Notes: generated by a model from the letters alone, not told the origin. A stretch of 64,000 nt of DNA from Patescibacteria group bacterium (GCA_041650515.1 JBAZLA010000001.1:82710-146709), one strand, 5' to 3'; positions 7,621-57,941 are shown, counted from the stretch's first letter. Numbers and translations: made by a program.

Positions 7621-7747
7621 GTCATTGCGAGGAGCTCCGACGTAAAGTCGGAGCGACGAAGCAATCTGGTAAATATCAGGAGATTGCTTCGTCACTCCAC
7701 TTCGTGGAGTTTACCCTGAGCGAAGCCGAAGGGCTCCTCGCAATGAC
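7621..7747. repeat. Family-B palindromic repeat (gtcattgcgaggagc ... gctcctcgcaatgac)
   Basis: Perfect 15-bp terminal inverted repeats enclose the internal hairpin gacgaagcaatct...agattgcttcgtc. It abuts the start codon of the next gene. Confidence 0.8.
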
Positions 7748-7749
7748 AT

Positions 7750-9081
7750 ATGAAAAAACTACTCAAAAAAATTCTACCTAAATCAATTCTTTCCACTTAC
7801 CATTATTGTTTGGCTTGGTTAGCCGCTTTGGTTTATGGTTTTCCCGCTCGAAAATTGATTATTATCGGCGTGACTGGCACCTACGGCAAAACAACAACTA
7901 GTTATCTAACGGCTCAACTACTGGAACTAGCTGGTTTTGAAGTTGGCCTAACCTCCACTGCTTTGTTTAAAGTTGGGCCAAAGGTTTGGCTTAATGACAA
8001 AAAAATGACCATGCTTGGCCGCGCCCAAACCCATCGTCTGCTACGCCAAATGGTCAAAGCCGGCTGCCGCTACGCAATTGTCGAGACCTCCTCCGAGGGT
8101 ATTCTACAACATCGCCAGATTGGCATTCATTATGATATCTTAATTTTTACCAATCTCTCGCCCGAACATCTCGAAGCCCATGGCGGTTTTGCCAATTACA
8201 AAGCAACTAAACTCAAGTTATTCAAAAATTTTGCCAAGACACCAACCAAAGAAATCTACGGCCAACCAGTTCCTAAGGTGTTAATCGGTAATTTAGATAA
8301 TGAACATTCGCCAGACTTTTTACAATTTAGAATTAATCATAAAATCGGTTTTGGCATCACGCCGGTCCAGCCCAACCTCGCGCCAGAAACCCTAATCGGC
8401 ACTGACATCCAAGCTGATCTAGCTGGCCTAAAATTTAAAATTAACCAACGTCAGTTTGCTTCACCACTACTAGGTGAATTTAATATTTATAATAACTTAG
8501 GCGCAATCGCCGCGGTCTATTCTCAAGGCGTGACTTTAGAAAAAATTTCTGAACTCTTGCCTCAGACTAAACCCTGTCCGGGCCGGTTGGACCTGATTAA
8601 TGAGGGCCAGCCTTTTACGGTGATTGTCGATTTTGCCTTCGAACCAAAATCCCTAGAAAAACTTTACAGCGTCGTTAAACTTTTTAAAAAACCCGATTCT
8701 AAAATTATCAATTTATTAGGTAGCGGCGGCGGCGGCCGCGACAAGGCACGTCGACCAATCCTTGGTGGGTTAGTTGCTCAGAATGCCGACCAAGTTGTTA
8801 TTACCAATGAAGATCCCTATGATGAAGATCCGTTGGAGATTATCAACCAAATCGCTGCGGGAGCTAGAGCCAAAGGCAAAGTTGAGAATCAAAATCTCTG
8901 GCTAATCTTGGATCGACGCGAGGCCATTAACCAGGCCTTAAGTCTAGCCCAAAAAGATGATATAGTTCTAATATCAGGCAAGGGCTGCGAACAAGCGATC
9001 GTGACTAAAAATGACCAACTAATCCCCTGGGACGATCGCCAGGTGGCCCGCGAAGAACTCAAAAAAATCGCTAACAGCTAA
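7750..9081 (+). CDS. Mur ligase family protein (MurE-like UDP-N-acetylmuramoyl-tripeptide synthetase)
   Basis: P-loop GVTGTYGKTTT, NLSPEHLEAHGGFANY, and C-terminal GSGGGGRDKARRP...ITNEDP motifs. Confidence 0.65.
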   Translation: MKKLLKKILPKSILSTYHYCLAWLAALVYGFPARKLIIIGVTGTYGKTTTSYLTAQLLELAGFEVGLTSTALFKVGPKVWLNDKKMTMLGRAQTHRLLRQMVKAGCRYAIVETSSEGILQHRQIGIHYDILIFTNLSPEHLEAHGGFANYKATKLKLFKNFAKTPTKEIYGQPVPKVLIGNLDNEHSPDFLQFRINHKIGFGITPVQPNLAPETLIGTDIQADLAGLKFKINQRQFASPLLGEFNIYNNLGAIAAVYSQGVTLEKISELLPQTKPCPGRLDLINEGQPFTVIVDFAFEPKSLEKLYSVVKLFKKPDSKIINLLGSGGGGRDKARRPILGGLVAQNADQVVITNEDPYDEDPLEIINQIAAGARAKGKVENQNLWLILDRREAINQALSLAQKDDIVLISGKGCEQAIVTKNDQLIPWDDRQVAREELKKIANS

Positions 9082-9087
9082 AACTAT

Positions 9088-9738
9088 ATGGAACAAAATA
9101 ACCCCAGATCTGATTATGGGTTTAAATCCAGACTCTGGCTCTGGTTGCTTATTTTTGCGGCTATCGTTTTTTTGCCGCTCGGCGGCCTAACCCTTTGGCT
9201 TTGGCTAAGCCAAACACCGGCCCCAACACCAGAACTAATAGTTAATGAGCAACTAGTTGACGAAAATATTAACGCCCCCACCTTTGGCGGCGGTTTGTCA
9301 CTAGCTGGCGAACGTGAAGCTCAGACCGAAGAGGAAGCTGAGACGTTCTTGGGCTATATCACCAGTATGGAAGAAAAGTTCGGCGTCTATTATCTTTATA
9401 TTGATTATATTCAATGGCTAACTGGTGATGAGGCTAAAGAAGCCGCTTTAGAAGATGGCGACTGTACTATCTTAGAAGCTTGTGCGCCCAATAATTTTTA
9501 TATTCGTAATGACAGTAAAAAGGTCCGCCGCTTAGAACTAGCCCCAGATATTGACATCCGTATGCAGACTTACAGCTACACTCCCGATGGTAATTATAAT
9601 ATCAGCGAAAAAATCGATGCGGTAACTTTTAAAGCCATTTTTGATAAAGAATCAGAGTCACTTCTTAAAAATAGCCCCTACCGAGTCGAAATTAAGGACG
9701 GCAAAATATTCAGAATCATTGAAAAATACGTCCCTTAG
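9088..9738 (+). CDS. Hypothetical membrane-anchored protein
   Basis: N-terminal transmembrane segment. No recognisable motif. Confidence 0.4.
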   Translation: MEQNNPRSDYGFKSRLWLWLLIFAAIVFLPLGGLTLWLWLSQTPAPTPELIVNEQLVDENINAPTFGGGLSLAGEREAQTEEEAETFLGYITSMEEKFGVYYLYIDYIQWLTGDEAKEAALEDGDCTILEACAPNNFYIRNDSKKVRRLELAPDIDIRMQTYSYTPDGNYNISEKIDAVTFKAIFDKESESLLKNSPYRVEIKDGKIFRIIEKYVP

Positions 9739-10202
9739 ATTAGCTAATTTTTCCCTCCCTGGGACAACCTGTGTATAACATCCGAATAAAAACAGCCTAT
9801 TTTAACCTCGGCTGTTTTTGATTATATCACCAATATCAGCCGACTAGTCTAAAAATTTAGCTAAAATAGGCTAAATTATCTATATTTTATCCACAGATGG
9901 CTAGCCCCTTGACAAGCCAGGCCTTTACCGCTTGACAGCTTTTTGGTGAACTGTTAATATATTGATTACTTTTGTACCTATTTTAGCTGATTATCTTCCC
10001 CTCGCAGGATCAAACTCCGAGGGAAAATTTTTGGCCATTTAGGACAAGAATCTTCTGTTTGCAGGTCAAATCCCCCGCTATTATAAGTCATTAATTTTAG
10101 AGTGGTGGGTAAAAGTTATTAAAAACTTTAAACAATTAAATAAAACCTCTAACTGGTCCACCGTAACCTAGTAGGTAGACCATCAAGAGAGGCCAATTTT
10201 TT

Positions 10203-13200
10203 ATGCTTGCTAAAAAAATCATTGACAAAAGCCAACCTCGTAAAACCTTTACGCCAGTCAAAGACGCGATGGAGCTGCCTAATTTAATTCAAATCCAAAA
10301 AGATTCTTATAACTGGTTTTTAAAACAAGGCCTCAAAGAACTGTTTGAAGAAGTCTCACCGATCAAAGATAATTTTGGCCGCAGCCTGGAACTTTATTTT
10401 ACCGATTATTATTTAGACGAGCCTAAATTTGATGAGGTAACTTCTAAGGAAAAAAACATTACCTACGAAGCACCCCTCCGAGCCAAAACTAAATTAGTTA
10501 ACAAAAAAATTAATAAAACCCAACAGCAAGAAATCTATTTGGGTGATTTTCCGTTGATGACCGACCGCGGTACTTTTATTATCAACGGCATCGAACGGGC
10601 CGTTGTTTCCCAGCTAATTCGTTCAGCTGGTGTCTTTTTTACTTCTGAAGCCTCACGCGGTCGACGTTGTTACGGTGCCAAAGTTATCCCTAACCGTGGC
10701 GCTTGGCTCGAACTAGAAACCGACGCCAATAATGTTATCTGGATCAAAATCGATCGCAAAAGAAAAGTAGCCGTCACCTCGCTGCTCCGTGCTTTCGGCT
10801 ATAGCAGCAATGAAGAAATCCATGATCTATTCAAAGAAGTTGATACTGATCCCGATATTAAATACATTGCTAAAACATTAGAAAAAGATACCGCCAAGGA
10901 TGTTAATGACGGATTAATTGAGGTCTACAAAAGAATTCGTCCGGGCGATCTCGCTACCCCGGACAACGCCCGATCATTACTTTATGCCATGTTTTTTAAT
11001 TTTGACCGCTACGATTTTGGCTCAGTTGGCCGCTATAAACTAAACGAACGATTTGGCTTTAAAATTCCTAATAATAAAGAAACTAGAATTTTACGCCGCG
11101 AAGATCTAATTGAAATTATCAAAGAAATCATCCGCTTAAATCTGTCCCAACGCGAACCAGATGACATTGATCACTTAGGCAACCGTCGCGTTCGCGCCGT
11201 TGGTGAGTTGATCCAAAATAAATTCCGCATTGGTTTGGCCCGGATGGAACGTATCGTTCGCGATCGTATGAGTACTCTCGACCCTCAGAGTATGATGCCC
11301 AGTCGTCTGATCAATGCCCGACCAGTTATTGGCTCAGTCAAAGAATTTTTTATGTCCTCACAGCTCTCCCAGTTTATGGATCAAACCAATCCACTGTCTG
11401 AGCTAGAACATAAACGCCGATTGTCCGCCATGGGTCCTGGCGGTTTATCTCGCGAACGAGCCGGCTTTGATGTCCGCGATGTTCACACTACCCACTACGG
11501 CCGTATCTGCCCAATCGCGACACCCGAAGGCCCAAACATTGGTCTCGTCGGTCATCTAGCAACCTACGCCCGAATCAATGATTATGGTTTTATCGAGACA
11601 CCCTACCGCAAAATTGAGCACATCGCGCTGGAAGAAATAAAAGACAAGGGTGGCAAAACGCTAGCCAAAAAAGGCGAAGCCGTTACTGGCGATAACTGGA
11701 AATTAATCAAAGAAAAATATCCTGAGTTAACTAACAAAACTAAACCGCTAGCTAGCGGCGAGGTGGTTTATCTCAACGCTTTAGCTGAAGAAAAGGCAGT
11801 TACTACTTCAGCCACCACACCAATCGACGATAGCGGCAACTTTTTGGCTGAAAAGGCCGAAGTTCGACGTTATGGCGAACCGGAGATGGATTTTGCCTAC
11901 AATATCGACTACATGGATGTTTCATCTCAACAAATTGTTAGTATTGCTACCGCCTTGATTCCTTTTCTAGAACACGACGATGCTATTCGCGCCCTAATGG
12001 GCACTAATATGCAACGCCAGGCTATACCTTGTATTAGATCCAATGCGCCGATTGTTGGTACTGGCGTCGAGAGACGGGCGGCCGTTGACTCTGGCCACCT
12101 GATCACAGCTGAGAACGACGGTAAAATTACCGAAGTTGATGCTAGCCATATCGAGATTCAAGAAACCAAGGGCCATTTAAAAAAATATCAGCTTAACAAA
12201 TTTATCCGCTCTAACTCTTCTACCTGTATTACTCAAAATCCCTTAGTTAAAAAAGGTGAAAAAGTCAAAAAAGGACAAGTCTTGGCTGATGGTCCAGCCA
12301 CTGATCATGGCGAACTGGCGCTGGGTCAAAATATTCTGGTCGCTTTTATGGCTTGGGAAGGTTATAACTACGAAGACGCTATTATTATTTCCCAAAGAGT
12401 AATGAGTGAAGATTCTTTTACTTCTATTTACATTGAAAACTATTCAATCGATGTCCGCGATACCAAGCTCGGACCAGAGTTAGTCACCTCGGATATTCCT
12501 AATGTTTCTGAAGAAAAATTAAAAAATCTGGATGCCGAAGGTATTATCCGCATCGGCGCTGAAGTTTCTTCGGGCGATATTCTGGTGGGTAAAATCACTC
12601 CCAAAGGAGAGACCGAACTCTCGGCTGAAGAAAAATTGCTTCGGGCGATCTTTGGCGAAAAAGCCCGCGATGTTCGCGACAGCTCGCTCTATCTTGAACA
12701 TGGTGAACATGGCAAAGTAATCGATATTAAATTATTTTCTCGTGAAGCTGGCGACAAGCTACCGTCTGGCGTCATCAAAACTATTCAGGTAACCATTGCC
12801 AATCTGCGCAAGGTCCAAGCTGGCGACAAACTCTCTGGTCGACATGGCAATAAAGGTGTAATTTCCAGAATTGTTCCGATCGAAGATATGCCTTTCTTAG
12901 AGGATGGCACGCCGATTGATATTATTCTCAGCCCTCTAGGTGTCGCCAATCGTATGAATTTGGGCCAAATTTTGGAAACCCACTTGGGTCTAGCCGCTAA
13001 GGCGCTAGGCTATCGTTTGGTCACCCCAGTCTTAAACGGCGTTACTGAAGAACAAATCAGAACTGAACTTAAAAAAGCCAACCTCCCTGAAGATGGTCAG
13101 CTTGTTCTTTACGACGGCCGAACAGGCAAATCATTTGATAATAAAATCACCGTTGGTATCCACTATATCCTTAAGCTTAATCATATGGTGGAGGATAAAA

Positions 13201-13550: not shown

Positions 13551-13570
13551 ATAATCAATTATATAATATA

Positions 13571-17715: not shown

Positions 17716-17844
17716 TTTGTCATCCTGAGTGTAGCCCCTAACCCATGTGTCAGGGGCGAAGCGAAGGATCAGCCTAATTAACATAATATCATTAGGACAC
17801 CCAGCTGATCCTTCGTCCCGCCACGCGGGACTCAGGATGACAAA
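17716..17844. repeat. Family-B palindromic repeat (tttgtcatcctgagt ... actcaggatgacaaa)
   Basis: Terminal inverted repeats of 15 bp. The internal hairpin ctgatccttcg... is shared with other copies. Confidence 0.75.
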
Positions 17845-29047: not shown

Positions 29048-29200
29048 GTCATTGCGAGGAGCAAAGCGACGAAGCAATCTCCTGAATAATCCACCAGATT
29101 GCTTCGTCGCTCCGCCAGTTGGCGGAACTCGCTTGGGGCTGGCTCCTTATATTGTCATCCTGACCCCCTCGGCAAAGTTTATCCTGAACGCAGCGAAAGT
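29048..29200. repeat. Family-B composite repeat
   Basis: Left arm gtcattgcgaggagc with hairpin gacgaagcaatctcctgaataatccaccagattgcttcgtc, then a second module ttgtcatcctga... Confidence 0.7.
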
Positions 29201-29251
29201 ATAAAAAAAGTGGTCACGTCGACCACTGGTCCTCCAAATCCTCCTGCATTC

Positions 29252-30397: not shown

Positions 30398-30467
30398 GAT
30401 TCCTCCTCTCCGGCCTGGCCGGTGAAATTAGACAATAGGTTTACTCTTTCTTAACACAATCAAATCC

Positions 30468-30620
30468 AAAAAGCAAGAAAGCATACGACCCGGCAGGCCT
30501 AAACAAGAAAACAAAAAAACATACGCGCCTCCCCCGTAGGTCTTTGACCTTTTACGGGGTCGGCGCTAAACAAAAAACAAGATTTGTTTTCTTGTTTTCT
30601 TGTTTTCTTGCTTTTTTGAT
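30468..30620. repeat. Family-D element (catacg-hairpin units plus ttttcttg microsatellite)
   Basis: Two units aagcatacg.cc[hairpin]ctaaacaa.aaaac, then (ttttcttg)x4. Related to 61361-61530. Confidence 0.65.
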
Positions 30621-31186
30621 TATTCGCTCACCCGTTCTAAATAATCATTGGTCTCGGTATTGATCCGAATCAAATCGCCTTGTTTAACAAACAACGGGAC
30701 ATTAACGGTTAAGCCGGTTTCCACAACAGCTGGTTTAAGCACTTTGCCTTGAGCGGTGTCACCACGCGCCCCATCAACCGTATCGGTTACTTGGAGAACG
30801 ATTTTTTTGGGTATATCAATACTCACCGGCCGATCTTCAAAATATAAAACATCAACCTCAACACCTTCTTTTAGATAACCAACTTTTTCAGCGCTCACAT
30901 CCAAACCTAGATCAAACTGCTCATAGGTCTGGGTATTCATAAAATAAGCGGCATTTTCATCTTTGTATAGATAACTGGCTTTACCGCGCTCCAAATCAGC
31001 CTCTTCGGCCTTATCCGTGCCCTTAAAAGTTTTTTCCAAAACAATACCGGTGACCAAATTTTTAATTTTAAAACGCAAAATACTCCCACCGCGGCCCATA
31101 TGAACCTGCTGAGTGTAGATAACCACATAAGGCTGATTATCCACCTTCATCACGGTGCCCATTTTGATATCACTTATCTGAAGCAT
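30620..31186 (-). CDS. efp: Elongation factor P
   Basis: EF-P three-domain sequence (KMGTVMKV...GRGGSILRFK...). The ORF track extends it upstream to 31219. Confidence 0.85.
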   Translation of the reverse strand: MLQISDIKMGTVMKVDNQPYVVIYTQQVHMGRGGSILRFKIKNLVTGIVLEKTFKGTDKAEEADLERGKASYLYKDENAAYFMNTQTYEQFDLGLDVSAEKVGYLKEGVEVDVLYFEDRPVSIDIPKKIVLQVTDTVDGARGDTAQGKVLKPAVVETGLTVNVPLFVKQGDLIRINTETNDYLERVSE

Positions 31187-31222: not shown

Positions 31223-31594
31223 TTACTTTTTACTTTTGTCTATTTTATTATTTAAATTATTAATTTCTCGCCAAAGCATGGCGCCGATCTCTCCTGCTAA
31301 CTTACAGACTAAATCGTAATCACTATTCTTTAAATAGCCCTCAACTAAAGAAAAATGCAACAAATATTTTGATTCCTTAAGCGAACCGTAGGAGCTCTCT
31401 AAAAAATTTAAGCGAATTAACGGCCGGCGACGGGCATACCCTTCAATATAGTTGAGAATAACCGACAGGGCGGCCCGCCTTAATTGAGAAACCGACCCAA
31501 AGAGTTCACTTTTAGGAAATAGACTGCTCAAGCGATAAGCCGAATGAACGTATTTATCCATCTTGATCTTCAAATTTTCCTGATACTCATTCAT
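31223..31594 (-). CDS. Four-helix-bundle protein (TIGR02436 / bAvd-like)
   Basis: FG..SQLRRAA.SV..N..EGY.R and GYL...DYD signature. The ORF track extends it upstream (to 31717) across a lysine-rich repeat-encoded stretch that overlaps rpsR. Confidence 0.55.
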   Translation of the reverse strand: MNEYQENLKIKMDKYVHSAYRLSSLFPKSELFGSVSQLRRAALSVILNYIEGYARRRPLIRLNFLESSYGSLKESKYLLHFSLVEGYLKNSDYDLVCKLAGEIGAMLWREINNLNNKIDKSKK

Positions 31595-31632
31595 ATTGTT
31601 TTCTGGCTTTTTTGCTTTCTTGTTTTCTTGAT

Positions 31633-31896
31633 CTACCGGCTGGTAAATGGCAAGATACACATCACCCGAGCGCGCTTGATAGCCATCGCTAGCTTCCGCT
31701 GATGAGTGGCGCAACAACCGCTCCGACGCTGAGGGGCAATTTTACCATAAGAGGAAATAAACCGACGTAGTAACTGAGCATCTTTGTAATCAATATCAGT
31801 GTAAGTATTGAGACAAAAATAACATTCCTTCTTCTCCGGCGCTTTTTCCTGTCGTTTGTTTGATCGATTGTTTGATCTAGTATTTGGTCTAGGCAT
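31633..31896 (-). CDS. rpsR: 30S ribosomal protein S18
   Basis: CYFC...IDYKD..LLRRFIS..GKI..RR.SG.CA..QRKLA.AIKRAR. Confidence 0.8.
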   Translation of the reverse strand: MPRPNTRSNNRSNKRQEKAPEKKECYFCLNTYTDIDYKDAQLLRRFISSYGKIAPQRRSGCCATHQRKLAMAIKRARVMCILPFTSR

Positions 31897-33045: not shown

Positions 33046-33327
33046 AATATAATTTGATTATTAATTATCTAAACTTTTTATTAATAAGATCTAAAAAACT
33101 CCCCAGTGTTCTATGGGAAGCTAAAATAAGCCCTCAGAACACCTTTAATTTACTCGCATATTGCTGTAAATTTAGCCAAATTTGGCCAGTGGAAAAGGTA
33201 GGTTCAAGTTGAATAACCCTAGATTATCACACTCAAGCAGATTTTTCAAGGGTCCCGTAGCGACAATTTATGAATTGCCGCTACCTTTTGTTTTCTTGTT
33301 TTTTGGCTTTCTTGTTATAATACCCCC

Positions 33328-34592: not shown

Positions 34593-34759
34593 CTGTCATC
34601 CCGAGCTGACCTCGAGCGACCCTGAGCAAAGTGAAGGGAAGTCGAGAGGGAAGTCGAGGGATCTAATCTAAGGTACCAGCCAAAGTTTAATGTTGTTTTA
34701 GATTCCTCCACTCGTCCCGTAAAGGTGCTTCGCGCCCACGGGACTCGGTCGGAATGACA
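34593..34759. repeat. Family-B repeat (tgtcatcccgag ... ctcggtcggaatgaca subtype)
   Basis: Inverted termini. Internal gagggatctaa...tagattcctccactcg shared with copies at 41626 and 52407. Confidence 0.7.
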
Positions 34760-35298: not shown

Positions 35299-35640
35299 TG
35301 GTTTCCTCCTTGGTTATCACATTTCGACCACCTGAAATCAAACTCTCAAGCCATTGCTGGCTCAATTATCCGACTCCGCCTAAAAAACCCGGAAAAAAGT
35401 AGCCCTATTTACTCTTTTCCCGCTCTTTTAGGTACTAATTGAGAGCGTTGAATAATTATGAAACGCTCTCATCCTGAGCAAAGCGAAGGATCTCTTACGG
35501 TTTGACTACCACGATAATCACTTAGCTCGGTATGAGATAATTAAATCATTCAATAGTTAAAATTAGGAACTTTAGACCTTAACATATTTTCCATTATCTG
35601 TCAACAATTCTCTTTGCCCAAGGAAAATATTACCATCTTC

Positions 35641-35720
35641 CTCCCCTTACCAAGGGGAGGGTTGGGGTGGGGTCGTCCCTCCCCTTACCAAGGGGAGGGC
35701 AGGGTGGGGTTGCCGGGGAA
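35641..35720. repeat. Tandem direct repeat, 2 x 40 bp, each with hairpin ctcccc-ttaccaa-ggggag
   Basis: cctccccttaccaaggggagggttggggtggggtcgtc repeated twice, then the terminator-like ggccgggaaactgatcggcc. Confidence 0.6.
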
Positions 35721-41625: not shown

Positions 41626-41752
41626 ATCATCTCGAGCGAGCCCACGGGACGAGTCGAGAGATCTAAAGGGATATTTCCAATTATGTACTATCGAATAGAC
41701 AGATCCCTCCACTCCGCCCCGACATACGTCGAGGCTTCGGTCGGGATGACAG
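41626..41752. repeat. Family-B repeat (ctcgagcgag...ggtcgggatgaca subtype)
   Basis: Shares gagtcgagagatctaa...agatccctccactccgccccgac..gtcg.ggcttcggtcgggatgaca with the copy at 52407. Confidence 0.7.
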
Positions 41753-42652: not shown

Positions 42653-42764
42653 ATCTTATATTATTTTAGTAATAGCTATTTTAGCAGACTTTTAAAAAAA
42701 ATCAACTCAGTTGACAGAATAAGTGATTAATCTACAATAACAACAATCCAAGGAGGTTTTAGTT

Positions 42765-43100
42765 ATGAATGCCGGTATTGAAAATCCGGAAATATATCTC
42801 GCGTTGTTGCGAGCTACGGCTAATGCGCAAATTCTATACAATCGGGCGGTCTTCTGCCTGATGCACCACGCCTGTAGCCACAGCCACCAACCAAAATTAG
42901 AAACTCCCATGATGGCTTTTGCCGATCTCTGGCAAACTGCCAACACTACGCTCCGGCGGCAAAAAGCTCGAGAGTTTCTACAAGCCGCCACCCGGCTCGA
43001 ACTCGGCTGGGTCTGGCCGGATCAACCGACCGAGGAAGAACCAACCGAGAGGCAACTGGCCGATGCTTTCGCCAATCTGCTTAAGCATCTCAATCATTAG
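42765..43100 (+). CDS. Hypothetical protein (111 aa), GC-rich island
   Basis: AAGGAGGTTTTAGTT-ATG, with a terminator gacccatccgggtc followed by a T8 run downstream. Confidence 0.5.
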   Translation: MNAGIENPEIYLALLRATANAQILYNRAVFCLMHHACSHSHQPKLETPMMAFADLWQTANTTLRRQKAREFLQAATRLELGWVWPDQPTEEEPTERQLADAFANLLKHLNH

Positions 43101-43293
43101 ACCCATCCGGGTCTTTTTTTATACCCCTACGAATTTTTATCATGTCATTGCGAGCGTAGCCCCCGACCCGTGTGTCGGGGGCGGAGCGAGTCGAAGGATA
43201 GTTTATAAAAAAGACCCGGAAGAAAGAGCCCCAATGGGTTTTCTCCGGGTGGCGAATCTTTACGATCCGCTAGTTTTCAGTTGTCCGTGTGCT

Positions 43294-43728
43294 TCAGCAG
43301 TTGAGCACGGTGACGATCCCCACGGAGGAGTTGAAGCCCAGGCTGGACAGGTAGCTTTCGTCCACGGCGGCGACTTCCTCACGGATTTCCTTCGAATTGA
43401 CGTCGTTCTCGTTGACGGCAATATCGTTGGAAACGCACTCCGTTCCTTGATCCATCGGCGCGACGTCGTTGTTCGCATCCTTCGACTGTGCGGCGGTGAT
43501 CACGTTGACCAGGGAAGCGGGCGGCGACACATCAACGGTCGCCGAGAGATTGGGCGCCGCGTAGTTCGCAGCCAACCCGAAGATAATCGCCTGATGGTTC
43601 GCAACGACGGCCGGAGTCTCATCGGTGGCCTCGTTCGCGACCTGAACCGGAGCGGCCTGCGCGACGGTCAGCCCGACCATCAGCACCGCCAAACAACACA
43701 ACGCAATGCACAAAAACAGTTTTCTCAT
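43294..43728 (-). CDS. Secreted hypothetical protein (signal peptide), GC-rich island
   Basis: AAAGGAGAAGAACCG-ATG and an N-terminal signal peptide (MRKLFLCIALCCLAVLMVGLTVAQA). Confidence 0.5.
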   Translation of the reverse strand: MRKLFLCIALCCLAVLMVGLTVAQAAPVQVANEATDETPAVVANHQAIIFGLAANYAAPNLSATVDVSPPASLVNVITAAQSKDANNDVAPMDQGTECVSNDIAVNENDVNSKEIREEVAAVDESYLSSLGFNSSVGIVTVLNC

Positions 43729-44168
43729 CGGTTCTTCTCCTTTTCGAAGAATTTTTGCCCCACCCTGGCTGATTGAAACCCTAGGGTTCCGAATCTGATA
43801 CCAAAGCGGTGCGCCTCCTGATTACCCTAGCAATCCCCTACCGATCGATCCAAATTAACCAAACTAGCTGTCATGGGGGTTGACTACTTCCCACTGACTA
43901 GCTCCCAAGGGTTAGTTGGGTCTCATGCTTGTTGAGGGATAACAGATCTAGTGCTAGTCTGGCTAGCAGTTTGATCAATCGTGATCGAATCGGTTTTGAA
44001 GGTTGCTTTTGGGTTATCATAATAATACTAATTTTATTTTTATTTAGCAAATAAAAAATTGCTTCGGCCGCCGGTAACCAATTGACAGAATGATTTATAA
44101 ATAATAAAGTGAGTTATTCGGTCTAATTTTGGAATTTGGAATTTTCAACTTTCTTGGAGGGCAGTAAA

Positions 44169-44645
44169 ATGACGACCTTTTCATCTTTAGTTGACTCTTT
44201 GGTTGGCTCGGTGGTGGGCACCAAGTCGTTTGGTATGGCCGTGGCGGATCTGTTGGCCTACCTGGCCAAAATGCAGCCGCTGCAGGATCCCAAACAACAG
44301 CGGTTGCTGCAGGCCGCCGAAGCATCCTTCCGCGACGCACCAGCAATGAAACCCTGGCTCGCCTGCGTCGCAACTTGGCAAATTCTCGAGGATATTTTCA
44401 CCGAATTGGCTGACACCCAATCAGCCTTTGAGGATTCGCACCCTGGCTCCGAAGAAGAGACCAGGGTAGATCAAGTCACCAGTGATCTATCAGATGTCCT
44501 GAACGATCTACACGATCTAAAGGGGATCGACGATCTCCAAGACGACCAACTAATGGCCGAGGAGGTTCGCCGCTTGACTCACAAATGTTTCCTGGCGATC
44601 AACGCCTGGCTGGAAATCATGGGTTGGTTACCTCAGGAGGGATAA
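44169..44645 (+). CDS. Hypothetical acidic protein (paralog pair member 1)
   Basis: TGGAGGGCAGTAAA-ATG. Followed by terminator gagggtaaccatcccctc-T7, which is nearly identical to the one after 44751..45197. Confidence 0.5.
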   Translation: MTTFSSLVDSLVGSVVGTKSFGMAVADLLAYLAKMQPLQDPKQQRLLQAAEASFRDAPAMKPWLACVATWQILEDIFTELADTQSAFEDSHPGSEEETRVDQVTSDLSDVLNDLHDLKGIDDLQDDQLMAEEVRRLTHKCFLAINAWLEIMGWLPQEG

Positions 44646-44750
44646 CCAACCGACGTCACAACCCCGAGGGTAACCATCCCCTCTTTTTTTATTGACAAAT
44701 CACTAAAAATAATATTAGATAAGCATAACTTTAACTGCGAGGTCACGAGA

Positions 44751-45197
44751 ATGGAAGAAGGGTTTAGCCGGTTACTCAATACCCTGCGGCAATCCGCCGC
44801 CGCACTCGAGCGCAGGGACGCGCTTATGGAGATCATGGGAATATTCCAACGCTTGGAAATATTCCAATCCTGCCAGAACTTATTGGCAGGACTCATAGCG
44901 TGTTTTGGTCTCTGTCCCCGACTACCGGGACTTGGCCAGCGGCTGTTTCTCCGCCACCTCTTCGTGGCACTCAGCCAGCACCTCGGCACCGAGGTCCAAA
45001 AGCGGGAAGCGGCAACCCCGCCGACCTGGGAAGAACCAGCGGGCTACCCCGATATGGTGGTCGCCCTCACCAAGGCCATGCAGGTCCTGGAAAAGGATGC
45101 CAACCTGGAAACCATCCACGGAGCAGCCGCAGACGGCTTTGCCGCTCTGTTCCAATGGCTCGGTTGGCTCGGAGCCTTTTCCGGCACAACAGACTGA
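44751..45197 (+). CDS. Hypothetical protein (paralog pair member 2)
   Basis: Followed by gagggtacccactccctc-T7 terminator, a duplicate of the upstream one. Weak Shine-Dalgarno sequence. Confidence 0.4.
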   Translation: MEEGFSRLLNTLRQSAAALERRDALMEIMGIFQRLEIFQSCQNLLAGLIACFGLCPRLPGLGQRLFLRHLFVALSQHLGTEVQKREAATPPTWEEPAGYPDMVVALTKAMQVLEKDANLETIHGAAADGFAALFQWLGWLGAFSGTTD

Positions 45198-45350
45198 CTA
45201 GCACCACGTTGCTGGCCAGCGAGGGTACCCACTCCCTCTTTTTTTATTGCTAAACGACGCAGGTTATATAACCTAAATTTATTTTACGACACAAAATCTA
45301 ATTTAAATATAAACAAATAATCAAATAACCAGCAGAAATTATCAACCAAT

Positions 45351-45400
45351 TGTTCCACGTGGAACATTCCGTAGGGGCAGGTCGCGACCTGCCCCTACGG
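45351..45400. promoter_or_regulatory. Perfect palindromes: TGTTCCACGTGGAACA (16 bp) + ccgtaggggcaggtcgcgacctgcccctacgg (32 bp)
   Basis: The first palindrome recurs at 47355-47372. Candidate operator/recombination site upstream of the cupin-like pair. Confidence 0.45.
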
Positions 45401-45459
45401 ATTTGACATCCACCAACCGATGTCCTAAAGTTAAAAATCAACCCAGGAGGATTTTCAAA

Positions 45460-45852
45460 ATGTTTAAACGGGAAGTTTTTCTCAAAGAAAAGTTGGCTGG
45501 CTGTCAGCCAACTGATCTGAGGATCTATTACTCTGGCGGGATTGTCAGCGCCCACATGAGCAAAGACAACCGCCGCTTCAGCCACGGGGCAGTCACCAGC
45601 CTCATGCCGGAATATGAGATTGAGGTCGGGGAGAAAGAAACCGTGGTTGTCCTGAAAGGGACTCTCAAGGTTCGCTTTCTTCACAAGAACGCTCCGGCGG
45701 ATGAGCCACGCTTTGACGAACGCTGGACCAAGGTCCATACCGGCGAAACCGTGGTCTTCGAAGCCGGAACTGGCGTCATTCTCGCCTGCGATCAGGAAGA
45801 GCCAGTCGAATTCTGGTGCGAATACGGCGACGCGCCAACCAACTCGGAGTAA
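45460..45852 (+). CDS. Small beta-barrel (cupin-like?) protein, paralog 1
   Basis: CAGGAGGATTTTCAAA-ATG. Shares GTL.IRF ... K.H.G..V...AG..V motifs with the 45968 gene. Followed by a terminator. Confidence 0.5.
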   Translation: MFKREVFLKEKLAGCQPTDLRIYYSGGIVSAHMSKDNRRFSHGAVTSLMPEYEIEVGEKETVVVLKGTLKVRFLHKNAPADEPRFDERWTKVHTGETVVFEAGTGVILACDQEEPVEFWCEYGDAPTNSE

Positions 45853-45967
45853 ACCCTTTTCTGGTAAACTCCACCTACCCCCCCCCACCTCGTGGGGTTT
45901 TTTATTTCTATTGACATTAAAGCTATTAAAAATTAAAGTTAAATTAACAAATAGGAGGTTGCAAAAA

Positions 45968-46354
45968 ATGGGAAGTTTCTTGGATCCAGAAATAAACACC
46001 AAGCCGGAAATTAAGAACAACGGTGGACTAATTAAAGTCTACTACTTCAATCAGTCTCAGTGTTATTTAGGGATCGTGACAGGGGGAGCTGAATATCAGT
46101 ACACCCCGGATAAAGATGAACCCATCGAAGTCACGGTCGGAACTCTTCAAATTCGCTTCCCACTAAAATACCCTAAACCACGTCAGTACCCGTGGTGCCA
46201 AAGGCTCCGAAAATACCACGTCGGCCAGAGAGTTACACTTCAAGCTGGCGTAACTGTCTGCCTATCAACGCTGGAACTTTCAGGAGCCGCTTTCAATGCC
46301 CATATTGGGCCCTATCCAACCATCGTCAAAGAGGATGGGCCTCAAAAGGGCTAA
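45968..46354 (+). CDS. Small beta-barrel (cupin-like?) protein, paralog 2
   Basis: TAGGAGGTTGCAAAAA-ATG. Paralog of 45460..45852. Followed by terminator atcccccatcgggga-T7. Confidence 0.5.
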   Translation: MGSFLDPEINTKPEIKNNGGLIKVYYFNQSQCYLGIVTGGAEYQYTPDKDEPIEVTVGTLQIRFPLKYPKPRQYPWCQRLRKYHVGQRVTLQAGVTVCLSTLELSGAAFNAHIGPYPTIVKEDGPQKG

Positions 46355-46485
46355 ATATAGGCAAATATCCCCCATCGGGGATTTTTTTATTCCCTCCCCC
46401 TGCTAAGGGGGAGGTGGCCGCAGGCCGGAGGGGGTCTTTGGGGTGGGAGGAGTATCAAAAAACACCCCATTTCTAGAGTGATCTT

Positions 46486-47023: not shown

Positions 47024-47095
47024 CGTCCCCGATAGGAATTGAACCTATATCTAGGGCTTAGGAGTCCCTTGTTCTATCCGTTGAACTACGGGGAC
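47024..47095 (-). tRNA. tRNA-Arg (anticodon CCU)
   Basis: Acceptor gtccccg/cggggac. Anticodon loop cUCCUaa with one A:G mismatch at the stem base. T-arm ataggTTCAATTcctat. Confidence 0.75.
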
Positions 47096-47107
47096 ATCAG
47101 GCGAATT

Positions 47108-47151
47108 GGGCTTAGGAGTCCCTTGTTCTATCCGTTGAACTATTGGGGCAT
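47108..47151 (-). pseudogene. tRNA-Arg(CCU) 5'-half duplicate (fragment)
   Basis: Copies acceptor-5', D-arm and anticodon arm of the adjacent gene. Flanked by inverted ggcgaat/attcgcc. Confidence 0.7.
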
Positions 47152-47350: not shown

Positions 47351-47548
47351 CGAGTTGTTCCACGTGGAACAATTTGTATGGAAAATTCATGAATTGCCAA
47401 TGCACAAACTAAGTTTTTGTTTATAATTAGATTAAATCTAGCGTCGTAAAATTATTTAATCTACTTTTTAAATAATTTTAATCTAATTTTGGCTAAACAA
47501 ATTATTAGTGGTATAATTCTAGCTGATAATTAATAGAAAATCAATTTT

Positions 47549-49099: not shown

Positions 49100-49140
49100 A
49101 AAATGTAGAGGTACGTCTACTAAACGCCTCTACATTTTTA
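49100..49140 (+). terminator. Rho-independent terminator after rpsT
   Basis: aaaaatgtagaggtacgtctactaaacgcctctacattttt. Confidence 0.7.
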
Positions 49141-49161
49141 TTTCTCTAAAAATCAATTAAA

Positions 49162-49602
49162 CTACTCAATAATCGGCTCAGCCAAATCTATCTCCGGATA
49201 ATTTCTAAATTGAGCTGCCAGGTCCTCAGCGTTTTTCATCAAAGGTACTGCTACTCGATACCAACTTTTAAATTCGTCCATATCCGGAAAAGCTAACTCA
49301 TAATTATCAACCCCTAGCTCTTTTAGGATTTCCTGCATCCTCTGCTGACTAGTTGCTTCTTTAAATTGAACCGCCAAATAACCAGCCCGCTGCTCAGTCT
49401 TTACCTCGCTTTGCGACTGGTCTTGATTAAGACTAGTTTCGACATACTGGATCTCATTAGTGCCACTTTTAGATGTTGGCCAAGTAATCTGATAAAACAT
49501 CAGCCCAGCCACAACCACCAAAAAAATCAGAATTAAAGATAATAAAACAGTATTAACGAGCGACGGTTTAATAAAATGCGATTTGATTTTTTGTAAACAC
49601 AT
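49162..49602 (-). CDS. Hypothetical membrane-anchored protein
   Basis: One N-terminal transmembrane segment. No recognisable motif. Confidence 0.4.
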   Translation of the reverse strand: MCLQKIKSHFIKPSLVNTVLLSLILIFLVVVAGLMFYQITWPTSKSGTNEIQYVETSLNQDQSQSEVKTEQRAGYLAVQFKEATSQQRMQEILKELGVDNYELAFPDMDEFKSWYRVAVPLMKNAEDLAAQFRNYPEIDLAEPIIE

Positions 49603-49604
49603 AG

Positions 49605-50567: not shown

Positions 50568-50578
50568 ATTTGGTTGAC

Positions 50579-50669
50579 CGTCATTGCGAGCGTAGCGAAG
50601 CAATCTCCTGAATAATCCACCAGATTGCTTCGTCGCCCCCCGATAAATCGGGGAGCTCCTCGCAATGAC
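50579..50669. repeat. Family-B repeat (gtcattgcgagcg...gctcctcgcaatgaca)
   Basis: Carries hairpin gacgaagcaatctcctgaataatccaccagattgcttcgtc, identical to copies at 29070 and 54310. Confidence 0.8.
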
Positions 50670-50732
50670 AATAACAACAGTTTAGCTCAAAATCTAGCGA
50701 AAATCAACTAAATATGCTAGGTTAAACTAAGT

Positions 50733-52409: not shown

Positions 52410-52543
52410 ACTTCCCGTCATCGCGAACGAAGCGTAAGCGGAGTCGAGGGATCTAATGGTTAATTACCAATATTCTCGGAATATCCCATTAGATCCCTCC
52501 ACTCCGCCCCGACGATTACGTCGGGGCTTCGGTCGGGATGACA
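52407..52543. repeat. Family-B repeat between the Cys-rich paralogs
   Basis: gtcatcgcgaacgaagcg...gtcgggatgaca. Same subtype as 41626. Confidence 0.75.
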
Positions 52544-52553
52544 ATAAAGACCT

Positions 52554-54212: not shown

Positions 54213-54286
54213 GGGAGTACTTGCCCCGTGATCCGCCTTAGGCGGATTTTATGGGGCTATCAGAAGGAAATATATTAAATTCCACT

Positions 54287-54385
54287 GTCATTGCGAGCCC
54301 GCCGCAGGCGGACGAAGCAATCTCCTGGGTAAACCACCAGATTGCTTCGTCGCTCCCGCCTAAAGGCGGTCGCTCCTCGCAATGA
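54287..54385. repeat. Family-B repeat after paralog B
   Basis: Preceded by a duplicated gene-end fragment atcagaaggaaatatattaaa. Carries hairpin gacgaagcaatctcctgggtaaaccaccagattgcttcgtc. Confidence 0.8.
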
Positions 54386-54507
54386 CGCTAAAAAACTATA
54401 CCCACCTGCCAAAACTGCCAACCAGCAGTTTTTTGATTTGACATTATTTCTAAAAAGGCTAAGCTTAAACATACTCTCAATAGTTCTTTACCAAGTAGGA
54501 GGGGTTT

Positions 54508-54873
54508 ATGAAACCCAAACGCGGCAGCCAGAAGATCGAGGTGGATTTTCTGTACGTGGTGATGCCACGGGCACATCGAGTGGTCTTCGTTGCCACTCAA
54601 GACGTGCCCCACGGAGTCAACCTCGAAAAAGTGGTCCAAAAATATGTTTTAAATGAACTCAAAAAAGCGGGGGAAGGACATCGTTTCTTCTGGTATCGTC
54701 TCGACAACCACATGAGGCCGCCGAGGAACCGCCCTCGTCCAGGCGATTTCCATGTACTCCAGGTCTATTACGGATCGACGGCAAATCGGGACGCAACCAA
54801 GGATATGTCTCAACCAGATTCCAAATGGCTGCGACAGGCTGTCCATGCCCTGCTGCGGCAACTGGCGGCCTAG
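54508..54873 (+). CDS. Hypothetical protein (121 aa), GC-rich islet
   Basis: AGGAGGGGTTT-ATG. Has a downstream hairpin and T-run. Confidence 0.5.
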   Translation: MKPKRGSQKIEVDFLYVVMPRAHRVVFVATQDVPHGVNLEKVVQKYVLNELKKAGEGHRFFWYRLDNHMRPPRNRPRPGDFHVLQVYYGSTANRDATKDMSQPDSKWLRQAVHALLRQLAA

Positions 54874-54969
54874 CCGCTATCAGACACGCTGTGTCCAACC
54901 CAGTCATTACGACTGGTTTTTTATTAAAAAAAGTCGCGAAGCGACACCTTTATTTTTAATTCTTAATTT

Positions 54970-57789
54970 TTAATTTTTAATTTCTTTAGTCTCGCCCCAA
55001 TTATCTCCCACCTCGATTTTAACCTCAATCGGCACCCGGAGTTTATAAACATTCTCCATCGTTTCTTGAATCAATCTAGCCGCTTTTTTAACCACGCTAT
55101 TTTTGACTTCAAACACTAGTTCGTCGTGCACCTGCAAAACCATTTTAACTTCGTCGGGCTGGAATTCTTGCTTTAACTTCTGATCAACTTGAATCATGGC
55201 TAGTTTGATTAAATCAGCCGCCGTACCCTGGATCGGTGCGTTAATGGCCATCCGCTCGGCGGCGTTGCGCACCTGTGCCAGACCAGAACTGATCTCAGGC
55301 AAATAGCGCACTCGGCCAAAAAGCGTTTCCACATAACCATGCTCACGCGCCGAGGCTAAAGTCTCACGGATAAACTGCTCGACACCGCTAAAAGCCGAAA
55401 AATATTTGGTGATAAACTCCTGAGCTTGCTCGCGTGAAATACCAGTCCGCCAAGCTAGGCCGTAAGCACCCATGCCATAAAGCACACCAAAATTAACTTC
55501 TTTAGCATTGCGGCGCATCTCTTTGGTGACCTCCGAGAGCTTAACTCCATTGATCTCAGCCGCGGTGGCAGTATGAATGTCTTCATTATTTTGAAAAATC
55601 TCCAACATTTTCTTGTCCTCAGCTAAAGAAGCCACAATCCGCAGCTCAATTTGCGAATAGTCAGCCGCCAGGATCTGATAACCTTTTTCGGCCACAAACG
55701 CCCGACGGATCTGTCCACCCAATTCAGTCCGAATGGGAATATTCTGGAGATTAGGTTCAGACGAAGACAGGCGACCCGTTGAGGTAACAGTTTGATTAAA
55801 ACTAGTGTGCACCCGGCCAGTAATCGAATCAACTAGATCGGGCAGAGCTTGAGTATAGGTACTCTGGAGCTTAGCGAGCTCGCGGTGCTGGGAAATATAA
55901 TCAATTATTTCGTGCCGACCACGCAGTTTTTCCAGTTCGGCCGCAGCCGTCGAGATACCGGTCTTGAGTTTTTTTAGTCCACCAGTAGAGATTTTAAGCT
56001 TATCAAACAATACTTCTTTAAGCTGCAACGGCGAATCAATATTAAAGTCGGTACCAGCCAACTGATGAATTTTTTGGTCCGCGATCAGACGCTCTTTTTC
56101 AATCCGAGCATCAAGCTTAGCCAAAAATTTAGGATCAATTTTAACTCCGGTTAATTCCATTTGAACTAAAATCGGAATCAACGGCATCTCAATTTTTTCC
56201 ATCAGGCCCAAAATATTTTTGCGCTCCACTTCATTACTTAATTTTTGGTAAAGCTGATAGGTATAATCAGCATCTTCGCAACAATATTCAGCTACTCGCT
56301 CAACTGGCACTTGGTCTAACGTCAGCTGGTCTTTGCCTTTGGGACCGATTAAACTTTCAATCGGGATCATCTCATGCCCCAGCTCCGTAAAAGCCAAGGT
56401 ATCCAAATCATGCGCCCGGCTACCGGAGTTAAGTAGGTAAGAAGCAATCATGGTGTCGAAATAAACTCCTTGGACATCAATCCCAGCCTGCTGCAGAATC
56501 TCTAAATCATATTTCAAGTTGTGACCGATTTTTTGGACGTTCTTATCTTCTAAAATCTTTTTAATTTCATCGCCGATGGCCGGTAGCCGATGGCCGATGG
56601 CTAAATACCAACCCTCTCCAGCTCGCCAGCTAAACCCAATGCCAACCAACTTAGCTTCCAAGGTATTTAAACCAGTGGTTTCGGTATCAATCGCTATTAC
56701 TGCTTGTTTCTTTAATTCAACCAAAAAACTTTTTAAACTCTTGGCATCATCAACCAAATGATAACCTTTGGGCATTTTAAAATCACTGCGGGCACCAGAC
56801 TCCTGCACGGGCAGGGCACTGCCCTGACCCCTACCGACTGCAAATAAATCTCCCTGCTTTTGTTGCTGTTTACCACTCAGCTCGGGCAATCGATTTAATA
56901 GCGATTTAAACCCCAAATGTTGAAAAAGCATAAACACCGCTTGATTATCAAATCCGCGCACCGCCGCTTCCTGAAGATTAAACTTGATCGGCGCATCAGT
57001 CACAATCGTCGCTAAGTGCTTGGATAATAAGGCATCTTTCTCATGTTCTAACAGCAGTTCTTTGATCCGTGGCTTAATTTCTTCACCTTCTTGTTTTCTT
57101 GCTTTTTTGTTTTCTTGCTTTTTTGTTTTCTTGATTTCTTGATACAGGTTCTCCAACGTACCAAACTGTTGCAGCAATTCCGTAGCAGTTTTTTCACCCA
57201 CACCCTTGACCCCGGGCAGATTATCCGATGGATCACCCCGCAGGCCCTTATAATCAACCATCTGCGCTGGCGCTAAGCCATAACGCTCCTTGACGGCCGC
57301 GGCATCGTAGATAACCGTATCGTTAATGCCTTTTTTGAGCGTAAAAACGGCGGTGTCATCGTTAATCAACTGCAATGTATCCATGTCGCCAGTAACAATA
57401 ATATTTTCTACCTGCCCATCTGTCTGACGACAAATTGTGCCAATCAAATCATCGGCCTCATAATTATCTTCTTTGTAAATCGGAATATTAAACGCCCGAG
57501 CTAACTGCTCTACTACCGGAATCTGGGCATAGAGCTCGTCCGGCTGTTTTTGGCGGGTGGCTTTATACTCGGTATATTCTTGATGACGAAAAGTTTTTTT
57601 GCCTTTGTCTAAAGTCAGGACAACATAATCCGGCTTAAGATCTTTATAAATTTTGAGCAAAATCAAAGCAAAGCCGTAAACAGCATTAACCAACATCCCG
57701 TCTTTACTGGTCAGCGGCGGCAAAGCGTGGAACGCCCGATGGATCAGGGCATTGCCGTCAATAACAATTAGTTTTCCTTTCTTAGACAT
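54970..57789 (-). CDS. polA: DNA polymerase I
   Basis: 5'-3' exonuclease, 3'-5' exonuclease and polymerase (motif A DYSQIELR, motif C QVHDE) domains. A repeat-encoded K/Q/E-rich in-frame insertion sits in the inter-domain linker (57085-57145). Confidence 0.95.
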   Translation of the reverse strand: MSKKGKLIVIDGNALIHRAFHALPPLTSKDGMLVNAVYGFALILLKIYKDLKPDYVVLTLDKGKKTFRHQEYTEYKATRQKQPDELYAQIPVVEQLARAFNIPIYKEDNYEADDLIGTICRQTDGQVENIIVTGDMDTLQLINDDTAVFTLKKGINDTVIYDAAAVKERYGLAPAQMVDYKGLRGDPSDNLPGVKGVGEKTATELLQQFGTLENLYQEIKKTKKQENKKARKQEGEEIKPRIKELLLEHEKDALLSKHLATIVTDAPIKFNLQEAAVRGFDNQAVFMLFQHLGFKSLLNRLPELSGKQQQKQGDLFAVGRGQGSALPVQESGARSDFKMPKGYHLVDDAKSLKSFLVELKKQAVIAIDTETTGLNTLEAKLVGIGFSWRAGEGWYLAIGHRLPAIGDEIKKILEDKNVQKIGHNLKYDLEILQQAGIDVQGVYFDTMIASYLLNSGSRAHDLDTLAFTELGHEMIPIESLIGPKGKDQLTLDQVPVERVAEYCCEDADYTYQLYQKLSNEVERKNILGLMEKIEMPLIPILVQMELTGVKIDPKFLAKLDARIEKERLIADQKIHQLAGTDFNIDSPLQLKEVLFDKLKISTGGLKKLKTGISTAAAELEKLRGRHEIIDYISQHRELAKLQSTYTQALPDLVDSITGRVHTSFNQTVTSTGRLSSSEPNLQNIPIRTELGGQIRRAFVAEKGYQILAADYSQIELRIVASLAEDKKMLEIFQNNEDIHTATAAEINGVKLSEVTKEMRRNAKEVNFGVLYGMGAYGLAWRTGISREQAQEFITKYFSAFSGVEQFIRETLASAREHGYVETLFGRVRYLPEISSGLAQVRNAAERMAINAPIQGTAADLIKLAMIQVDQKLKQEFQPDEVKMVLQVHDELVFEVKNSVVKKAARLIQETMENVYKLRVPIEVKIEVGDNWGETKEIKN

Positions 57790-57941
57790 GGGTATATTTT
57801 ACCATTTCGGACCAAATAAAAAAACCGCCTAACTTCTCTAATTTGTCATCCTAAGCCCTTCGGAATGACAATTAAAAATACTTTATCCCTAACAACATTA
57901 AATTTTTCTAAACAAAAAATCACCCTTCAAGGTGGTTTGGA

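Follow-up and report, generated by a model that had tools for sequence, protein, structure and literature searches.

What are the palindromic elements that stand between the genes of a 64-kb stretch of Patescibacteria DNA, and how have they become so numerous there? The stretch (64,000 nucleotides, GCA_041650515.1 JBAZLA010000001.1:82710-146709; hereafter the window) encodes proteins labelled 'Patescibacteria group bacterium' at NCBI, the nearest named relatives being Candidatus Falkowbacteria. It belongs to a metagenome contig of 472.5 kb (ENA ERZ27247363). It carries housekeeping genes (rnY, hupA, rbfA, a Mur-ligase gene, rpoB/C, ftsK, recA, argS, efp, ssb, rpsF, ychF, holA, polA and rmuC) and seven tRNA genes. 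An earlier description, made from the sequence alone, had noted a dense family of repeats resembling repetitive extragenic palindromes (REPs) or MITEs (miniature transposable elements that end in inverted repeats), with exchangeable internal hairpins. Our analysis supports this description and indicates that the elements are probably gene-less miniature pairs of hairpins of the Ssn-related motif (SRM) type, the sites of Ssn nucleases, which multiplied in this lineage after its split from the nearest sampled relatives.

The elements are built from half-units of constant order: a tag (Y followed by GTC), a 5-nt arm, GAG or GAC, a variable stretch, a terminal GAA or GA, the complementary arm, and a C. 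The arms, all of which begin with AT, are ATTGC, ATCCT, ATCCC, ATTCC, ATCGC and ATCTC. The variable stretch usually holds a GC-closed mini-hairpin of free length within a GAG(GA)...(GAC)GAA internal loop, and facing halves are separated by an apical spacer of about 13-40 nt. In units of the window type, the contiguous stem has 5 bp and the loop 11-55 nt; one possible drawing of the canonical form has 5 bp, then two G/A mismatches, a further 2 bp and GAA as the loop. Because an element consists of two inverted half-units, its apparent 11-17-bp terminal inverted repeat is the tag plus the outer arm. The terminal inverted repeats of the sequence-only reading are therefore present, but as hairpin tags and outer stems, not as the transposase-binding ends of a DDE-type MITE; the terminal variants and internal hairpins quoted there (GACGAAGCAATCT/AGATTGCTTCGTC, CCCCGAC/GTCGGGG, GAGGGATCTA/TAGATCCCTC) all occur.

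By direct reading, the window contains 10-11 loci with about 16 tagged half-units. They lie exactly between positions 7621 and 57869 and are all intergenic, as had been described; the repeats are real, but the earlier figure of at least 12 copies depends on how one counts. The elements are as follows (window coordinates; strand where one is assigned; z-scores from single-strand folding of the elements against shuffles):

E1, 7621..7747: complete head-to-head ATTGC-type pair with three side hairpins; fold z = -9.6
E2, 17719..17841: complete ATCCT-type pair in the rpoC/ftsK gap; fold z = -7.9
E3, 29048..29132: left ATTGC-type unit intact, right unit cut off at ...CTCGC
E3b, 29154..29203, plus strand: degenerate ATCCT-type fragments, GTCATCCTGAC..TTTATCCTGAACGCAGCGAAAG
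E4, 34595..34758: complete pair, left ATCCC/GGGAT, right ATTCC/GGAAT; fold z = -1.0
E5, 41626..41751: complete pair, left ATCTC/GAGAT, right ATCCC/GGGAT; adjoins tRNA-Ala
E6, 43144..43200, plus strand: chimeric solo half, tag-side arm ATTGC, inner arm AGGAT, without a right partner
E7, 50580..50669: complete 90-bp ATTGC-type pair; fold z = -8.3
E8, 52417..52542: complete pair, left ATCGC/GGGAT, right ATCCC/GGGAT, of the GACCGA..GTGGAGGGAT type; fold z = -10.9
E9, 54287..54386: complete ATTGC-type pair, flanks copies of the E8 flanks, interior unlike E8; fold z = -8.9
E10, 57845..57869: 25-bp mini copy with the two outer termini only (GTCATCCTAAG..CTTCGGAATGAC)

Seven of the ten loci are thus complete inverted, head-to-head pairs (E1, E2, E4, E5, E7, E8, E9); the others comprise one truncated or composite copy (E3 and its debris), the solo half E6 and the mini copy E10, which is probably the remnant of an internal deletion. 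A mini form resembling E10 adjoins the ssnA gene of Spirosoma. The 11-mer GTCATTGCGAG, allowing at most one mismatch, occurs 8 times in the window against 0.89 expected, a count reached in none of 100 shuffles. E1, E2, E7, E8 and E9 fold far better than their shuffles (z = -7.9 to -10.9), whereas E4 and E10 (z = -0.95) do not fold better than theirs. In a hand tabulation, the YGTC tag is present in 15 of the 16 window units, the exception being the left half of E5, where it has decayed to ATC (CATC); the C after the 3' arm is likewise found in 15 of 16, with an A in E6.

E1 occupies the gap between rbfA, on the minus strand, and the plus-strand Mur-ligase gene, ending 2 nt from the ATG of the latter; E7 lies between holA (minus) and the first of two zinc-finger paralogs (plus), and E8 between paralogs 1 and 2. 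The positions previously given as after argS and before tRNA-Ala are right in plus-strand coordinates only: with respect to transcription, E3 is upstream of the argS start and E5 downstream of tRNA-Ala. No T-run follows the hairpins. Rfam gave no match at gathering thresholds for the window and 18 element-bearing loci, nor at a permissive E-value for E1, and a literature string search with the termini and core returned unrelated primers only.

The stems covary. In E4, the left and right stems differ and the change is compensatory within each half (ATCCC/GGGAT vs. ATTCC/GGAAT). Double compensatory changes confined to one half occur in E4, in E5 and in one copy at locus L272, which has ATCGC/GCGAT in one half and ATTGC/GCAAT in the other. 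A scan of viral contigs in which the three free positions of the arm could hold any base gave 164 distinct units, 151 of which have perfectly complementary arms, with ten different triplet pairs; the base preceding GTC is T or C in 157. It is clear from the half-specific stems and the complementarity in viral contigs that the two arms of one half pair with each other, and that pairing is not only across halves.

The family extends far beyond the window. The exact pair of 11-mers (22 terminal bases), spaced 60-90 nt apart, occurs in 111 stretches of IMG/VR contigs; at least 120 species genomes carry it as well, from more than 10 bacterial phyla. Carriers include Alpha- and Gammaproteobacteria (Bradyrhizobium and other Alphaproteobacteria, Legionellales, Coxiellaceae, Solimonas), Bacteroidota (Pedobacter, Mucilaginibacter, Flavobacterium), several Patescibacteria, Chloroflexota, Planctomycetota, Desulfobacterota, Ignavibacteriota, Zixibacteria, Margulisbacteria and Firmicutes/Clostridiales; elements are also present on megaplasmids, in at least 40 places on a 1.76-Mb Novosphingobium replicon. 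For background we took the rpoC loci that a metagenome scan with RpoC had yielded, 80 in number and 1.24 Mb in all, from related but distant bacteria with at most 61% identity. These contain 3 elements, one of which again separates rpoC from the gene that follows, compared to 10 in the 64 kb of the window, which bears out the density noted at the outset. The family is pan-bacterial but patchy, and it is expanded in the genome of the window.

In two viral contigs, element pairs about 625 bp apart enclose ordinary phage genes and no transposases. Many element-bearing viral contigs (L002-L112, IMG/VR) have in common the head, portal, protease and tail genes of one tailed-phage or gene-transfer-agent-like group, with elements between the structural genes. 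Phages may be carriers of the repeats between hosts. When the open reading frames (ORFs) near about 350 copies in 231 loci were clustered, no recurring family emerged, only phage structural and common housekeeping families.

The closest known systems are those of the Ssn proteins (cd10448) and their NTS/SRM repeats, named by Chenal et al. (2025, Nat Commun, PMC11893778). According to that study, Ssn enzymes bind only the folded single strand and cut it a few bases upstream, 5' of the tag; cutting depends critically on the GTC 5' of the palindrome, and binding on the C that follows it. SRMs lie near 71% of Ssn homologs, on both sides in 42%, and the authors likened NTS-ssnA-NTS to an insertion sequence (PMC11893778). 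The window elements agree with SRMs in having an HGTC tag 5' of a hairpin that starts with W-Y, a C after it, intergenic placement, tens to hundreds of copies, and inverted units around a single-domain GIY-YIG gene of about 95 residues, an arrangement that we reproduced in 12-18 of 22 loci. They differ in the stem, 5 bp instead of the published 7-9 bp, and in the loop, which is modular (GAG...GAA plus mini-hairpin) and 11-55 nt long instead of 0-5 nt; further, they are almost always tight head-to-head pairs that form a single palindrome of 90-165 bp. The main text of Chenal et al. (PMC11893778) does not mention Patescibacteria.

A second relative is the CGTC-tagged REP superfamily of Di Nocera et al. 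(2013, PMC3733652), whose repeats now go under the name of SRMs; it is defined by an unpaired CGTC/TGTC (or CCTC) tag, a stem starting with AT and a 3-nt tail. It has four families, CGTC-1 to CGTC-4, including Neisseria dRS3 and Rickettsia RPE-4 and RPE-6; these were reported from 5 phyla, chiefly Alphaproteobacteria, with stems of 8-9 bp and loops of 4-5 nt, mostly as head-to-head dimers with 20-100-bp spacers and 'apparently no dedicated transposase' (PMC3733652). The window units have in common with them the tag, the A-T/T-A first stem pairs, a tail beginning with C (CCA in many copies of the family outside the window), the head-to-head dimers, the patchiness and the lack of a flanking transposase, and they share the ATTGC...GCAAT stem ends with CGTC-3. 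They do not have the 8-9-bp stem and 4-5-nt loop: where the middle of the stem would be, they carry tandem G/A mismatches or a hairpin insertion. Their host is a Patescibacterium. The QMITE2 repeats of Coxiella were considered as members of the same family and rejected, as they are GTAG-type REPs.

The connection to Ssn enzymes comes from genes bracketed by the units. To detect such genes, we used a fixed SsnA-type profile of 16 sequences with a common C-terminal NPxWxDL motif in place of cd10448; an iterated GIY-YIG profile was discarded because it drifted into unrelated long proteins, and one GIY-YIG protein as sole query yielded 2 loci, both viral. A small GIY-YIG gene is followed directly by an element in L426, is located inside the apical loop of an ATTGC-type element in L084, and is preceded by a full element in L211. 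Homologs of the L426 protein are bracketed in Magasanikbacteria, Gracilibacteria, other Patescibacteria and unnamed bacteria, with units within 3-60 nt of start or stop. Five independent loci come from Patescibacteria and allies; in all of them a unit of the window design lies upstream of the gene and another, inverted, lies downstream, for example TGTCATTCCGACCGA..GTGGAGGAATCCC; the bracket unit TGTCATTCCGACCGATCCGCCAGCTGGCGGAGAGTGGAGGAATCCC is comparable with the right halves of E4, E5 and E8. Units of this design flank ssnA-type genes in L084, L211, L426, L430, L435, L444, L445, L447, L456 and L457.

Sampling by protein gave the same picture. A tblastn search against plasmids and chromids returned 33 records, from genera that host CGTC REPs (including Rhizobium, Sinorhizobium, Shinella, Sphingobium, Novosphingobium, Azospirillum, Neisseria) and from Planktothrix, Spirosoma, Aeromonas and Photobacterium. 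Tagged units flank the gene in 13 of the 14 loci fetched, with a stem type that depends on the lineage and is alike on both sides. Over all ssnA-type loci, a strict inward-facing bracket is present in 12 of 22, five of them from Patescibacteria and allies, and at least one unit within 120 bp in 18 of 22, against a background of 0.05 units per kb. The genes sit between unrelated housekeeping genes, e.g. between sufB and sufC or gltA and lpxB. Bracketed genes were also seen inside conserved operons (L447/L449, L456, L457, L441, L431), the insertion places being between ATP-citrate-lyase-like subunits, ATP synthase b and downstream subunits, pgk and eno, and the two gene pairs just named. Many ssnA homologs are on contigs of 0.5-3 kb, which fits repeats breaking assemblies.

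In the explanation we favor, every window element combines two REP-like hairpin units of the CGTC-tagged/SRM class, set head to head, and the units would be single-strand-DNA recognition sites of small GIY-YIG Ssn nucleases, an activity known from the literature (PMC11893778). The elements would represent a gene-less miniature of SRM-ssnA-SRM, as suggested by a topology that is the same as in the bracketed ssnA loci, with the gene missing. An Ssn enzyme encoded outside the window would act on the window copies, and the cuts it makes, with subsequent copying or repair while the DNA is single-stranded, would spread them. For both the nuclease activity and the critical bases, this explanation draws on published work on other SRM units.

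How recently the elements spread can be judged from the nearest sampled relatives, in which RpoC is 73-77% and PolA 71% identical and the gene orders DHH-rbfA-mur-X-rpoB-rpoC...ftsK-HTH-recA and polA-(paralogs)-holA-S20-rmuC are kept. At the sites orthologous to E1, E2, E7, E8 and E10 in L419, L422, L424, L426 and L427, no unit of the family is found; the sites instead hold lineage-specific palindromes with a period of 7-8 nt or plain terminator hairpins. L422, in turn, carries an ATCCT-type element of its own in the holA/S20 gap, which is element-free in the window. Three window copies, E3, E7 and E9, have the apical sequence CTCCTGRRTAAWCCACCAG in common, which is not explained by any structural constraint. 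E8 and E9 occupy two copies of one junction (left flank ATCAGAAGGAAATATATTAAA, right flank CTATRCCCA..AAAACTGCCAAC), yet their interiors are of different stem types despite the copied site. Taken together, the element-free orthologous sites, the shared apical loop and the copied E8/E9 site speak for elements having been gained, replaced and copied within the genome of this lineage since its split from the nearest sampled relatives. Had the copies been orthologously conserved, the mobility proposed in the sequence-only reading would have been weakened; they are not conserved in these relatives.

The same reading had suggested that the elements may drive local rearrangements, including the tandem duplication at 50.7-54.4 kb, and for the duplication the comparison speaks against this. 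L419_B shares 64% identity with paralog 1, and L419_A 74% with paralog 2, while the two paralogs are only 42-44% identical to each other, and the paralog junctions of L419 hold no element of the family. As the paralogs are orthologous one-to-one with those of L419 and the junctions there are element-free, the duplication is, judged by these sequences, ancestral and older than the elements. A newer copy of about 170 bp of the paralog-1/paralog-2 junction, located downstream of paralog 2, includes an element site.

The periodic palindromes form a second, unrelated family, whose arms are runs with a period of 7-8 nt; the window word is CTTGTTTT/CTTGCTTT. They were seen at the following positions:

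Window: 30463-30629, 31584-31638, 33286-33314, 57063-57144, 61355-61529
L419: 12829-12890, 14640-14757, 16403-16480
L424: 13895-14030
L427: 3810-3910, 13965-14090

The period word differs by relative (GACTCTG, GTTCAAAG, GAAATAAA), but the palindromes are found at the same kinds of junction, including the sites of E1, E2, E7 and E8 in the window. They look like lineage-specific, fast-evolving gene-boundary hairpins.

Several observations count against the explanation that we favor. The SsnA-type profile detects no SsnA-type gene within the 64 kb of the window. Among the 231 loci that were picked by element, an ssnA-type gene is adjacent in only 2. The published SRM string, HGTCWYN(0-2)YYVSBRHN(0-5)WNVSBRGN(0-2)RNCYNB, has no match in the window, because the stem of the window units is shorter and their loop much longer; it matches the Neisseria NTS, but neither the pan-bacterial ATTGCGAG unit nor the units of Spirosoma, Planktothrix and L426. 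Finally, the relatives are distant, so that the absence of elements from their sites is a sign of turnover and falls short of a filled-site/empty-site proof.

The alternatives fare worse. Chance palindromes or assembly artefacts can be regarded as refuted: apart from the shortness of E10 and E3b, the only point in their favor, they are opposed by the excess of the 11-mer, by five complete copies that fold at z-scores of -8 to -11 and by the identical sequence in hundreds of independent assemblies. Classical MITEs, i.e. deletion derivatives of a DDE-type insertion sequence (IS) moved by cut-and-paste via their terminal inverted repeats, are suggested by perfect 11-17-bp terminal repeats, small size, intergenic location and many copies. 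In these respects, and in possible promoters or terminators, the elements resemble the Correia elements or NIMEs, the latter being blocks bounded by dRS3. We nevertheless consider this origin highly improbable. The target-site duplications and transposase association that the sequence-only reading proposed to look for were not seen: the flanks show no direct repeat, TA or other; the left one is only rich in T and the right one in A. A Pfam scan of window ORFs of at least 80 residues found no IS, transposase or integrase, and no transposase-like family recurs near the clustered copies; the partner found elsewhere is the small ssnA-type nuclease. Moreover, the ends of the elements are structured hairpin units in which the supposed terminal repeat covaries with the inner arm of its own half, which is unexpected for a duplex end bound by a protein.

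REP/REPIN elements mobilized by RAYT, an IS200-like Y1 HUH transposase, are a further candidate. Like the window elements, they consist of tagged hairpins used as single-strand sites of a small nuclease, RAYTs acting on folded single-strand REPs, and they form inverted doublets and intergenic mosaics (BIMEs), with a single-copy gene bracketed by its own repeats. Their tag, however, is GTAG and not YGTC, and the enzyme fold is HUH Y1 and not GIY-YIG. Phmmer with E. coli RayT was negative in the window and in about 3 Mb of element-bearing loci, tblastn was negative for RayT on the Novosphingobium replicon with its many copies, and according to the literature no RAYT is flanked by CGTC units; mobilization by RAYT is therefore very unlikely. 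A last alternative, which we regard as unlikely, is that the elements are vertically inherited functional sites selected by the host, such as terminators, mRNA stabilizers or sites controlling the nucleoid or transformation. The Neisseria NTS/SsnA pair does modulate natural transformation, E. coli REPs are reported to have roles in 3' untranslated regions, and the same junctions in the relatives hold other palindromes, as if a hairpin were wanted there. Set against this are the lack of conservation at orthologous sites, the location of two copies in divergent promoter regions and of one abutting a start codon, the freely exchangeable interiors, and the negative results for T-runs and Rfam. Co-option of some copies by the host would be compatible with the SRM-type explanation.

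The window does contain a single GIY-YIG gene, located 130 nt from E10:

57998..58279, minus strand: small single-domain gene for a 93-aa protein that scores 48 bits with Pfam PF01541

We rejected it as the partner enzyme, since it scores 34.5 bits against the SsnA-type profile, similar to E. coli YhbQ (31 bits), and lacks the C-terminal NPxWxDL motif; of the training sequences, 15 score 121-155 bits, by construction, and one, with a wrong genetic code, 51. It falls in another GIY-YIG clade, made up of stand-alone genes for proteins of 80-93 residues (HNxGxxxSTxxxRPW type), which is closer to YhbQ, present in multiple copies in these Patescibacteria and not bracketed by tagged units:

L422: 4797-5036, 19024-19266
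L295: 2106-2394
Window: 57998-58279

At 57940-58520, this gene and an intact tRNA-Cys (58313-58384) are located inside an apparent split second copy of tRNA-Cys, with its 5' half at about 58430-58505 and its 3' end at about 57940-57960, each broken by a 30-nt double hairpin, TCCCCCTRTGGGGGATCTCCCGTAGGGAGA, at TG^CAAA. Possibly this region is a cassette of the homing type with a tRNA of its own. A similar double hairpin is inserted in the T-loop region of a degenerate tRNA-Gly-like copy (63093-63200), which lies beside tRNA-Gly (63231-63305) and has the same ACCCGCTCCA end. A partial duplication affects tRNA-Arg(CCT): 44 nt that overlap this tRNA recur at a distance of 54 nt with 93% identity (47054-47151).

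Further repeats in the window belong to neither palindrome family. Hairpins of the form CCTCCCCTTACCAAGGGGAGGG with G-rich tails form a tandem at 35640-35709 and stand singly at 46393-46424; this motif, too, is common across many phyla of bacteria. A perfect 34-nt palindrome (TCCGTAGGGGCAGGTCG/CGACCTGCCCCTACGGA) with the leader TTGTTCCACGTGGAACA is located at 45350-45401, and the leader recurs 2 kb away (47355-47398). A 61-nt repeat at 58734-58794 and 62241-62301 (80% identity) has the palindrome GTTACTTTTTTAGTTATAAAAAAGTAAC at its end. Two stretches, 42700-46400 and 58800-61100, have a G+C content of 49-53%, compared to about 43% elsewhere. In both, ORFs on the two strands overlap and lack Pfam matches; foreign DNA or sequence without coding function is a possible reading.

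The association of units and ssnA is already published (PMC11893778); what is new is a structural variant missed by current search motifs, found in a phylum for which we saw no description of it. We also considered a wider view, in which the long-loop GAG...GAA pairs are the MITEs of a GIY-YIG mobile element and SRM-ssnA-SRM is an autonomous single-strand 'insertion sequence' that has crossed more than 10 phyla, partly via phage. We offer it tentatively, as a possibility that is on balance doubtful. If true, it would explain 22 identical terminal bases from Bradyrhizobium to Patescibacteria, and it would make Ssn the catalytic core of an unrecognized transposition mechanism, not a host nuclease alone.

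For practical work, the elements explain many spurious small ORFs and metagenome contig breaks, and the variety of stem triplets provides candidate enzyme/site pairs for single-strand DNA tools. The published SRM motif misses a large cross-phylum branch with short stems, long modular loops and tight inverted pairs, and genome surveys would therefore undercount Ssn sites. The relation between gene-in-loop and gene-less forms gives a testable picture of repeat multiplication, and our favored explanation would place the dense repeat family of an ultra-small Patescibacteria genome in a class whose enzyme was characterized only in 2025.

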